Shown here piece by piece: positions 33,801-39,202 of a DNA stretch of 53,086 nt (the stretch's first letter is position 1; every line of letters starts with the position of its first letter). The notes under the pieces were generated by a model. That model worked only from the letters and a program-made list of their open reading frames with translations. It did no database searches and was not told where the DNA came from. The position numbers were made by a program, and so were the translations under genes. Source of the DNA: Candidatus Giovannonibacteria bacterium RIFCSPHIGHO2_01_FULL_45_24 (lineage in GTDB: Bacteria > Patescibacteriota > Minisyncoccia > UBA11713 > 2-01-FULL-45-33); the NCBI GenBank assembly GCA_001778495.1, contig MFHE01000006.1, forward strand, positions 1 through 53,086, given 5' to 3'.

Positions 33801-36800
33801 GAGGACTTTTATCGCAGGACAATTCAAACCTCTTTTGGGATGATACGAATAACAGACTCGGCATCGGGACGACGAGCCCGTGGGGGCTTCTTTCGGTAAA
33901 TCCCAACGGCATCGCCGGTCCCGCGTTCGTGGTCGGCTCTTCAACCAAGTGCGTTACCGGGGACACCAAGCTTAAACGCCGCCGCAAGAGACGCCGCAAA
34001 AACGGCAAAGGCGAGTGGGAAGAGGAAGAATATTTTGAAGATACGCGGATTGATGAGATTAAAGAAGGAGACGAAATCCTCACGCTGGACGAAAAAACCG
34101 GCAAGCTTAAGGTCTCCCGCGTCAACAAACTTATGGATATGGGCGTTAAAGAAATCTACACTCTGACCACCGCCACCGGCAAAAAAATCCGCACCACCGC
34201 TAACCATCCTTATCTTCTCGCGCCGGAATTTCCGAAAGAGCGCGTCGCGATATTCATTGACGGGGCGAATGTAGAAGCAAGTTTGCGGCATATGAGCGCG
34301 AGGATTGACTACCAAGAGCTTCTTTCGGCGTTCGGCGGGAAAGAAGCGGTTTCGCGCGCGGGATTTTATAAAGTTGATTTCCAGCACAAAGGACAAGGCC
34401 AATTCTTTACCCGGCTCAAGAAACTTGGCTATCGGCTTATTACTAAACCCCTTAAAATCATTGAACAGCGCCATCTCGCCGACGAGCATAAGGGAAATTT
34501 TGACGTTGAGATCGCCGTTGACGCCGTAGAGCGCAAAAACGCTTTTGATACTGCGGTGCTCTTCTCCGGCGATTCGGATTTTGCTTATCTTGCCGAGCGG
34601 CTCCAGCAAAATGGTAAACGTTTATTAGTTATTGCTCCTTATCGGGCCACCGGCAGAGAGCTGCGCAAACAGGCGGACGTGTTTTTAAGCCTCGCCGATA
34701 TGCCCTTCGTTGATTTCGGAGCAACTAAAAAAGCCCCGCAAAGGGGGCATCACAACCGGCTTTCACCGGCACTTCCCATCCTAGCGCAGGCGCATCCCTA
34801 TGTCAACGGGGGGGTGTGGACAAAGGTTTCCGAAATTAAGGAAGGGCAGATGATTGCGACTTCCGGCGCGAACGGCAAACCGGTCTTTGAAAGAATTATG
34901 TCAATTGAAAAAACCGCCGCCGAGCAGGTCTACGACATAGAAGTGGAAGGCACGCACAATTTCATCGGCAACGACATCGTGGCGCACAATACCTATCTCA
35001 CTGTAACCAACGGCGGCAACGTCGGCATCGGGACGACAAATCCCGGGGCAAATCTGGATGTAGATGTGCCGTCAGGTCAAGGTACTATAAGATTGAGTGA
35101 TACTAACGTTAATGTTATTAAATTATCGGACGCTTCCAGTGGTGCTACTACAAACGGGATAATATCAGTATATTCAGGTGGAACTGAAAATATCAAATTG
35201 TTTGCTAGTAGTAATGATTCATCTTGGATTAATGCTGGCAACGTCGGCATCGGGACGACGAGTCCGGCGACAAGATTGTCAGTGCAGGGAAATGGTTTGT
35301 TTTCAGGAAACCTTACAATCGCCGGGCTGACCGCTACCGGAACGGCTTCGTTCAATGCTGACGCAAGAACAAGCGGCTCATCGGCCCTTTGGAGTTTTGC
35401 CGGAGGAGCAGACACCGGTCTTACGGCTTCCACCGAGGCCACTGACGCGCAATTCAATCTGGCCAGAACAAAAACCCACGCCAACGGAACAATCACGCTT
35501 CAGCGGGACGCGTTAATCAATGCCGCGACCCATGCTTTCACCAATTTCGCTTCAGGCAACATAACCGACCTCGCGACTCTCGGGATTACCGGAGCTCCTT
35601 TGGCGGGAACTAATGCCACAACCACCAACGCCCATACCATATATCTGGGCGCCTCTGCCCTTAACGCCTCCACCACCAATTCATACGGCCTTACGGTCAA
35701 CGCCAACACGGGAGCGACAAACAATTATGCCGCGGCTTTTCTTGGCGGCAACGTCGGAATAGGGACGACCTCACCTTGGGGGCTTCTTTCCGTAAATCCC
35801 AACGGCATCACCGGCCCGGCGTTCGTGGTCGGGTCTTCAACCCAGTGCGTTACTGGGGACACTCGCCTTCGTCGAAGACGAAGGAAATCCAAAGGCAAAA
35901 GCTCAAATGCCAAATCAAGCTCAAAGTTCAAAATCCAAAAATTGGGAGAAGACGAGGAATTCATCTATGAAGAAGTCGCGATTGTGGATGTCCAGTCCGG
36001 AGACGAAATCGCCTCCTTGGACGAGACAACCGGAAAAATTGTCTGGTCAAAAGTGAGAGCGCTTATGCATATGGGCCGAAAACCGATTATTGAGCTGGAA
36101 ACGGCGCTCGGCAGGAAAATCAGGACAACGGAAAATCATCCTTATTTTGTTCGCGAACGCGCGTCGGAACCGATTCGAGCGGTGGCGTTTATTGATTACG
36201 CGAATATAAAATCATGGCTTATTGATAAAAAGCTGCGGATTGATCTCGATTTGCTCCACAGGGAGCTAAAAACCTCCGGTGTAAAAGAAGTCAGGTTTTA
36301 CTACGGTTCTGACGAGCTGGGCAAAAATACCTCTTTTTTCGCGGCACTGCGCCGAATGGGCTACGCAGTTATCACCAAGCCAGTTCAGTACTTTGCAGTA
36401 CGGCTTTTGGATATTTTACAAAAGTCTCGGAATCGTCGATGGCTTGATGCGCTTTCACAAAATATCCGCGAGACGCTTCTTAAAGAGTCGAGCCAACTTG
36501 ATACTAAAGGCATTCGCTTGTTTGAGCCGAAAGCAAACTTTGACGTTGAGATTGCGGCAGACGCGCTGGAAATGGCTAATTCTTTTGATGCTGTTTTGCT
36601 TTTCTCCGGCGACGGGGATTTTGCGGATCTCGCGCGACGCCTTTCTGCCAAAGGCAAACAGGTAATCGTAATTTCCGGCAGGAAGTTCATGTCAGGGGTT
36701 TTGATGGGCGAAGCGGACGGGTTTGTGTTTATGGAGCAATTGGCAAAAATGATCCCCGGCCTGGTTTCTTCAGGTGAAAAGGCAAAACCTGCCTTGCGGC

Positions 36801-39202: not shown

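Follow-up and report, generated by a model that had tools for sequence, protein, structure and literature searches.

A putative antisense small-RNA gene nested beside a NYN nuclease domain in a patescibacterial intein

Type I toxin-antitoxin pairs with an antisense RNA overlapping the toxin mRNA at its 3' end include txpA/RatA and bsrG/SR4 of Bacillus subtilis and par RNA I/RNA II of Enterococcus faecalis, and nuclease-like toxins are found in the type I pairs SymE/SymR and RalR/RalA. Homing-endonuclease inteins carry LAGLIDADG or HNH nucleases; to our knowledge, inteins are thought of as protein-only parasites with the homing endonuclease as their sole cargo. Here we describe the second of two inteins (intein 2) in a giant repeat protein of Candidatus Giovannonibacteria bacterium RIFCSPHIGHO2_01_FULL_45_24, encoded on contig MFHE01000006.1 (the window, 53,086 nt; contig C6 of a 531-kb, 14-contig genome with 47% GC). 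Its insert appears to hold an independent RNA gene on the opposite strand, travelling with a nuclease of the NYN/LabA family. The nesting of such an antisense-RNA/nuclease module, with its RNA gene reversed, inside an intein would be without precedent.

The locus resembles type I systems in having a short RNA served by a strong promoter and a terminator of its own, in the antisense overlap of that RNA with the gene of a potentially harmful protein, and in being compact and mobile. At the sequence level, the presumed toxin mRNA is indeed overlapped by a predicted antisense RNA gene that has a promoter and a terminator to itself. It differs from type I systems in that the partner is a nuclease domain of ~200 amino acids (aa) of the NYN/LabA-like kind and not a small membrane peptide; the small hydrophobic peptide toxin, typical of type I although not universal, has no counterpart here. 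Furthermore, the intein-2 pair lies inside an intein, so that the 'toxin' is translated within a 2778-aa host protein, and one NYN subfamily has its RNA upstream in the sense orientation. Type III systems such as ToxIN, which we take to be organised as promoter, short structured RNA, terminator and ribonuclease-like protein, offer a second comparison. This exact order is found at 14819-15476, the only such same-strand arrangement in the window. However, the nuclease family is a different one, the intein-2 RNA is antisense and nested, and the tandem repeats of type III RNAs were not found in 33900-37100, where the only tandem repeat is a 9-nt repeat of the extein.

Like homing-endonuclease inteins, intein 2 has class 1 features and contains a nuclease domain that separates its N- and C-terminal splicing blocks. 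Unlike them, its nuclease is a NYN (PIN-like) domain, an independent RNA gene occupies the opposite strand of the insert, and relatives carry candidate antisense toxin-antitoxin operons or tRNA-like RNA genes and no nuclease. OMEGA systems consist of transposon-encoded TnpB or IscB plus an omega RNA, according to the available part of PMC13565253. As described there, they are, like this locus, selfish elements in which a nuclease gene has a small structured RNA at one of its ends; here, by contrast, a comparison of RNA and target revealed no guide-like complementarity, the predicted RNA is an antisense one of just ~41 nt, and the nuclease fold is another one. A literature search, with subscription journals outside its reach, found no precedent for NYN-bearing inteins, for RNA genes in inteins or for antisense intein cargo. 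The words intein, Hint and homing occur zero times in the available text of PMC5499597, which treats LabA-type NYN proteins.

The antisense unit of intein 2

The features of the locus are as follows.
30866-39202, plus strand: giant open reading frame (ORF) for a 2778-aa repeat protein (…IGIGTTSP… modules) with two inteins inside
33950-34990, plus strand: intein 1, within this ORF
35846-37036, plus strand: intein 2, 397 aa, with Cys1, a TENH block and a C-terminal HN followed by Thr (CVTGDT…TENHPY…IVAHN, then T)
36182-36775 (approximate limits), plus strand: NYN (LabA-like, PIN-like) nuclease domain, in frame in intein 2, from PADLOC and NCBIfam
36861-36869, minus strand: DnaA-box-like 9-mer TTGTCCACA, 9 nt upstream of the -35 hexamer and one mismatch from TTATCCACA, which we take to be the DnaA box consensus
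36851-36846, minus strand: perfect -35 hexamer TTGACA, read directly and found by the promoter scan
36832-36824, minus strand: extended -10, TG-C-TACAAT (TG at 36832-36831, TACAAT at 36829-36824), read directly and found by the promoter scan
36817-36809, minus strand: predicted 5' single-stranded leader, from the class alignment
36808-36783, minus strand: hairpin of 11 bp with a GCAA loop (36808-36798 pairs with 36793-36783), from folding and covariation
36782-36776, minus strand: U-rich tail CCUUUUC, the presumed point of intrinsic termination, read directly

By its sequence features intein 2 is a class 1 intein whose splicing is predicted: it has the N-terminal Cys, a TxxH block B and the C-terminal His-Asn followed by one of the Ser/Thr/Cys nucleophiles. 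The NCBIfam models intein_Nterm (1.4e-6) and intein_Cterm (3.9e-7) match it, and both splicing models also match intein 1, with which it shares 40% identity. The PADLOC NYN profile (PDLC01154) detects the nuclease domain in intein 1 (E 2.2e-15) and in intein 2 (E 6.4e-11); TIGR00288 matches the intein-2 domain at 1.6e-4, under its curated cut-off. Five acidic residues (D117, D233, E235, D256, D258) are invariant in 4/4 aligned NYN inteins. The domain thus combines the profile match with the conserved acidic active-site residues of NYN/LabA-like proteins, and it looks catalytically intact.

An earlier note on this DNA had described a minus-strand promoter, leader, hairpin and tail in the intein. 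All of these parts can be read directly, with two amendments: the stem extends to 11 pairs around the core ACCTGCC / GCAA / GGCAGGT, and the free tail is CCTTTTC only. The promoter has a 16-nt spacer ending in TG-C and is the top of 25 promoter-like sites in 29000-41000 (11/12 plus TG). Its extended -10 agrees with the native TGCTAnnnT style; the apparent native consensus (genome G000) is TTGACA-N14-TGCTAnnnT with a 17-nt spacer. The spacing from the -10 would put the transcript start near A36817, giving a predicted transcript of ~41 nt. The RNA folds at -20.1 kcal/mol (z = -4.46), which 0/200 shuffles equalled. An upstream AAG pairs with the first Ts of the 'tail', so that the extended stem consumes part of the T-run, which explains why the terminator scan did not list this hairpin. 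T-runs are mostly longer in other members of the intein-2 class. None of the metagenome contigs that span the hairpin shows a variant in it, and one contig from run X2 has six differences at 36757-36774.

In both inteins the -35 abuts …GGGGGGGTGTGGAC at the junction with the C-terminal splicing domain, as the earlier note had stated and direct reading bears out. The codon phase of the shared TGTCAA differs, TAT GTC AAC (YVN) in intein 1 versus TTG TCA AGC (LSS) in intein 2, and thus protein conservation does not explain it. The same note had held that recurrence of this architecture was no accident, and a genome-wide count agrees. TTGACA-N16-18-TAnnnT occurs at 43 sites, 36 of them intergenic or at gene edges, four sense within coding sequences (CDSs) and three antisense within CDSs, where CDSs are our own crude ORF calls and make up ~90% of the genome. 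The intein units account for two of the three antisense sites, and a doubtful, open-ended ORF at a contig end contains the other. When a hairpin and T-run were also demanded, 5/43 sites passed and the intein-2 unit was the only one inside a CDS; this strict rule misses the intein-1 unit and the unit at 14846. The intein-2 unit is far beyond chance.

Comparative evidence points to selection on an RNA. When metagenomes were scanned with intein 2 from its NYN domain to its C terminus, 15 loci were returned, 12 of which hold an intein-2-like unit. A covariance model (R1) built on 14 units recovered 17, namely the training rows and three new ones (L159, L161, L071). Nine of the 11 stem pairs have changed on both sides in this alignment, which is fitted to the model and leans towards structure. 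Paired cells amount to 86.5%, compared with 71% in shuffles (none of 500 reached the observed value) and 32-53% with slid partners. Members of the class share the leader motif (C/T)AC(A/T)nTTCT, and in all 17 units the RNA runs antisense to the 3' end of NYN. A conserved antisense protein was considered and rejected for the NYN inteins, since the longest stop-free runs in 17 inteins range from 63 to 265 aa in differing frames; with no conserved antisense ORF, the product is taken to be RNA. Rfam 15 gave no match at E <= 5 in 33500-37500 and nothing relevant in nine free-standing NYN loci. At one locus (L071 2914-2998, minus strand; G276:C8) the unit scores 35.4 bits and has a strong, intact terminator, though the frame of NYN and linker has stop codons.

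Recurrence in inteins and beside free-standing NYN genes

The same intein family (CVTGDT…HNFIGNDIVAHN) occurs in giant repeat proteins of many Patescibacteria metagenome-assembled genomes. Relatives were collected by whole-genome searches and a scan of one genome per species. Of 72 candidate inteins, nine were dropped (stops, wrong end or duplication), leaving 63 that are intact and non-redundant. At least one perfect antisense TTGACA-N16-18-TAnnnT is present in 55/63, and the totals are 61 antisense versus 0 sense. The 1.5-kb flanks hold 11 versus 0 perfect sites, which we assume to belong to neighbouring inteins. When at least five of six matches were asked of the -35, an antisense promoter lay 120-330 nt from the intein 3' end in 45/60 near-complete loci. 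Promoter offsets peak at 150-200 nt from that end, and the TGTCAA codon phases are distributed 38/21/2.

The sister unit of intein 1 belongs to a different RNA class, with relatives at L080, L076, L082 and L089.
34727-34806, minus strand: intein-1 unit with TTGACA-17-TAGGAT, a small GAAA-loop hairpin and a GCCCC/GGGGC hairpin followed by T6

The claim that the RNAs of inteins 1 and 2 are unrelated in sequence holds, in that R1 does not match the intein-1 unit. A second model (R2), made for the class B intein RNAs, found neither the upstream units described below nor intein 2 at E <= 1, and R1 has a weak match to window 14846-14942 (19.5 bits, E 0.006, promoter included). A single RNA family for the intein-2 class, class B and the upstream units is not supported, for lack of cross-detection by the two covariance models. 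Conservation lies in the architecture and the partnership instead. The proposal that the cargo is NYN plus a cognate RNA is supported by the 17 loci and by the free-standing NYN genes.

Five NYN genes (L157, L158, L159, L160, L162; 216-257 aa) are free-standing, each with its own stop, and hold an intein-2-class unit antisense within the final ~30 codons. L157 has a tail (…AKPAFRQVLKKCAPSIASLLGLSSGNVDNK) collinear with the linker of intein 2 (…AKPALRQVLKNSNSIVARPPSLSSGGVWTKV), and the collinear part includes the L-S-S codons which form the -35. The final N-V-D-N-K codons of L157 are the reverse complement of the perfect TTATCCACA 9-mer; at their place the intein has the V-W-T-K codons of its splicing block, with one mismatch to the 9-mer. 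From the shared RNA class at the 3' ends of free-standing genes and the collinear linker and tail, computation shows a NYN-plus-antisense-RNA module that appears to pre-date the intein and to have been captured whole as cargo. Twelve further free-standing NYN loci of other subtypes were hand-picked as the longer ones, most of the short (~172-aa) NYN-only matches (L008-L032, L054-L058) being left out. In these a convergent promoter and a two-hairpin RNA run into the last codons (6/12 by strict rules, 12/12 by eye). One hairpin, TGCAGTCGCAAGATTGC, is common to L048, which is free-standing, and the intein RNAs of G210c, G057, L084, L087 and L091.

A third arrangement is present in the window itself.
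14819-14930, plus strand: third unit, with a perfect TTATCCACA box (14821-14829), TTGACA-17-TACACT, a short leader, a hairpin and a T-run
14943-15476, plus strand: third NYN gene, free-standing, 177 aa, directly downstream of the third unit

This layout of an upstream same-strand unit followed by NYN was seen by eye in 9/10 related loci. In the third unit the T-run is followed by a TGCTAAAAT element and, about 7 nt later, by the NYN start codon; the third NYN mRNA may be leaderless. A small housekeeping-type NYN gene elsewhere in the genome (C14:71722-72243) has no such unit.

All three units in the window have a DnaA-box-like 9-mer (36861-36869, the 34816-34824 region, 14821-14829). TCCACA lies within 30 nt upstream of 3/43 genome promoters, and all three are the NYN-linked units. 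Among the intein promoters, 26/61 have a box with at most one mismatch to the assumed consensus, compared with 0.6% of shuffles, and in 22 of these 26 the box ends 6-10 nt before the -35. Free-standing units also have the 9-mer, in either orientation, 6-10 nt upstream of the -35 (by eye). Within inteins it falls on the splicing-block codons for V/L-W-T-K; in intein 2, the V-W-T codons of GGVWTKV read as TTGTCCACA on the complementary strand. Candidate DnaA boxes are thus strongly enriched and positioned, yet in inteins they overlap conserved W-T-K codons.

Possible modes of action

We propose that intein 2 would carry a small-RNA gene nested antisense in the linker between its NYN domain and its C-terminal splicing block. 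The gene would comprise a DnaA-box-like 9-mer, a consensus sigma-70 promoter of the host type, and a ~41-nt transcript with a U-tail, made up of a short pyrimidine-rich leader and an 11-bp GC hairpin. This RNA would hold the NYN nuclease in check as antidote or regulator, and the pair would favour retention of an intein that lacks a classical homing endonuclease. That the element is a genuine transcription unit partnering NYN is very probable. The account we favour, by a modest degree, is that the intein captured a toxin-antitoxin-like pair in which the RNA serves as antidote or regulator; we infer that the RNA restrains the nuclease. For a partnering unit, cis-antisense pairing with the NYN-coding mRNA, as in type I systems, is the leading mechanism though short of probable, and it fits the position of the RNA antisense to the NYN 3' end in 17/17 intein-2-class and 12/12 convergent units. 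An RNA bound or used by the NYN protein, as in type III systems or as a cofactor, is a tentative second. Promoter interference with no role for the RNA product is unlikely, and some other mechanism more so.

If this proposal is correct, it would give a function to a widespread NYN subfamily of ultra-small bacteria, add a nuclease-type member to the RNA-antitoxin systems, and provide a simple answer to how inteins without a homing endonuclease avoid loss. The pair is small (about 0.7 kb), and the family-wide rule of 55/63 inteins supplies many natural variants.

Several points weigh against the proposal of an antidote or regulator RNA. These can be summarised as (i) the antisense promoter is also present in inteins without NYN and drives cargo other than NYN, and thus part of the signal belongs to the intein family and not to NYN; (ii) in the subfamily of 177-aa NYN proteins the unit precedes the gene on the same strand, a position in which antisense pairing with the NYN mRNA is impossible, which argues against a purely type I-like mechanism; (iii) linkage alone would also make RNA class and NYN subtype co-occur; (iv) homology among the RNA classes is not demonstrable; (v) the free tail of the intein-2 unit (CCUUUUC) is weak and went unlisted by the terminator scan; (vi) promoter, start site and terminator are all predictions, and the toxicity of NYN and the antidote action of the RNA are hypothetical. 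In addition, LabA-type NYN proteins have no established toxin role in the available text of PMC5499597.

Of the alternatives to an antidote or regulator RNA, an RNA-protein partnership survives best, although we regard it as unlikely. Here the hairpin RNA would be bound or processed by NYN, with its orientation irrelevant. It would account for the same architecture accompanying NYN whether the RNA is nested antisense, converges on the gene or precedes it on the same strand, for the resemblance of the upstream order promoter-RNA-terminator-nuclease to what we take to be that of ToxIN, and for RNA classes which diverge fast alongside NYN subtypes, as expected of cognate pairs. However, the RNA has no tandem repeats, NYN is not a ToxN- or AbiE-type RNase, and binding is hypothetical; the antisense position at the NYN 3' end, invariant in the intein-2-class and convergent units, would be needless for a pure protein binder.

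A cis-acting transcriptional device is rather improbable. In such a device a strong promoter, possibly controlled by DnaA, and an immediately following terminator would throttle transcription of NYN and its host gene by occlusion or collision, and the RNA would be functionless. Conservation of the architecture and not of the sequence is in keeping with this, as are the DnaA-box-like 9-mers upstream of the -35 in 26/61 intein promoters and in free-standing units, and the T-run that, by eye, abuts TGnTAnAAT just before the NYN start codon in the upstream arrangement. Covariation of the stem and the leader motif point instead to selection on the RNA, an argument that is not fully discriminating since a terminator is needed either way. 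For the upstream subfamily, with its same-strand arrangement, either RNA-protein partnership or promoter interference fits better than antisense pairing.

The two weakest alternatives can be dealt with briefly. A guide RNA for homing, with a leader directing the NYN nuclease to an intein-less allele, is suggested by the short 5' leader and 3' hairpin handle beside a nuclease inside a mobile element, but it is highly improbable and was rejected, as the longest RNA matches to 80 nt of joined exteins are 4-9 nt in either sense with no consistent position (53 units) and the same RNA accompanies free-standing NYN genes, where there is no intein. Functionless motifs, arising by chance or as a by-product of protein coding, could be imagined where the region is coding and the -35 sits beside a conserved peptide motif; this is already refuted, with next to no probability left, by the one-sided promoter count of the 63 inteins, by the two codon phases, by a -10 that shifts phase with spacer length, by compensatory stem changes and by the unit kept in G276 (L071) despite its broken NYN frame.

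Other cargo and spread of the intein family

In three relatives the antisense promoter is followed by two antisense ORFs.
L125 465-1041, minus strand: two antisense ORFs behind the antisense promoter
L134 1833-2583, minus strand: the same
L099 1725-2406, minus strand: the same

The sense frame of all three is open and encodes a low-complexity peptide. NCBIfam gave no name for the antisense ORFs. In a look-alike search, which provides leads only, the L125 pair resembled DUF433 (0.93) and a DUF5615 PIN-like protein (0.94; TM 0.95). The two look like a DUF433 antitoxin-like protein and a DUF5615 PIN-like toxin, that is, a candidate toxin-antitoxin pair. With such a pair occupying the same cargo bay, a role in addiction becomes plausible.

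Mini-inteins of 222-270 aa hold, antisense to the intein, a tRNA-like RNA of ~70 nt without a D-arm.
L044 1303-1373, plus strand: tRNA-like RNA
L034 1297-1367, plus strand: tRNA-like RNA
L036 1231-1300, plus strand: tRNA-like RNA
L051 261-328, plus strand: tRNA-like RNA

By eye, G3:U70 and A73 are present in 4/4, a combination which we take to be the alanine identity rule. ARAGORN found no tRNA in 13 relative loci, and Rfam returned only sub-threshold tmRNA and mascRNA matches on the mini-inteins. A second perfect promoter follows the tRNA-like RNA, and its RNA complements the anticodon-like arm over 16, 14, 8 and 15 nt; the maximum in shuffles was 9-10. Two further inteins, L068 (G274) and L113, have another in-frame cargo domain with no NCBIfam or PADLOC name and their own conserved antisense RNA of ~75 nt, containing GGGCTGCGAATC…TGTAACAGTTCTG.

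A broader possibility, which we put forward as speculative, is that the family's cargo bay is read in reverse. A promoter linked to a DnaA box and embedded in the splicing-block codons would drive antisense addiction modules (NYN with its antisense RNA, the DUF433/DUF5615 operon, or an RNA-only pair of an alanine-type tRNA-like RNA and a complementary small RNA), and the sense frame would merely be kept open. Post-segregational killing, and not homing, would then maintain the inteins that have no homing endonuclease, and small-RNA genes would be a regular but hitherto unrecognised kind of intein cargo.

Both inteins of the window occupy the same point of the repeated extein module, that is …VVGSST(K/Q), then the intein, then TYLTVTNGGNVGIGTTSP… (window 35008-35031 and flanks), and relatives have up to three inteins per gene (G210:C11). 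The common insertion point in a repeated module and the multiple inteins per gene suggest that the intein has spread between repeat units of one gene. The sequencing runs listed for this DNA are 10 metagenome runs of DNA from seven studies, with no RNA run among them, which has no bearing on expression. Metagenome reads of runs X1, X2, X3 and X9 were assembled against 33500-37500, where the repeated extein motif swamps the result and 'joints' between repeat modules are uninformative. Contigs from X1 and X2 join 33946 to 34990 with two other letters between (depths 29.5 and 15.8; side lengths not given). Intein 1 is exactly as long as the net loss at this joint, 1041 nt, which hints weakly at an allele or strain that lacks the intein.

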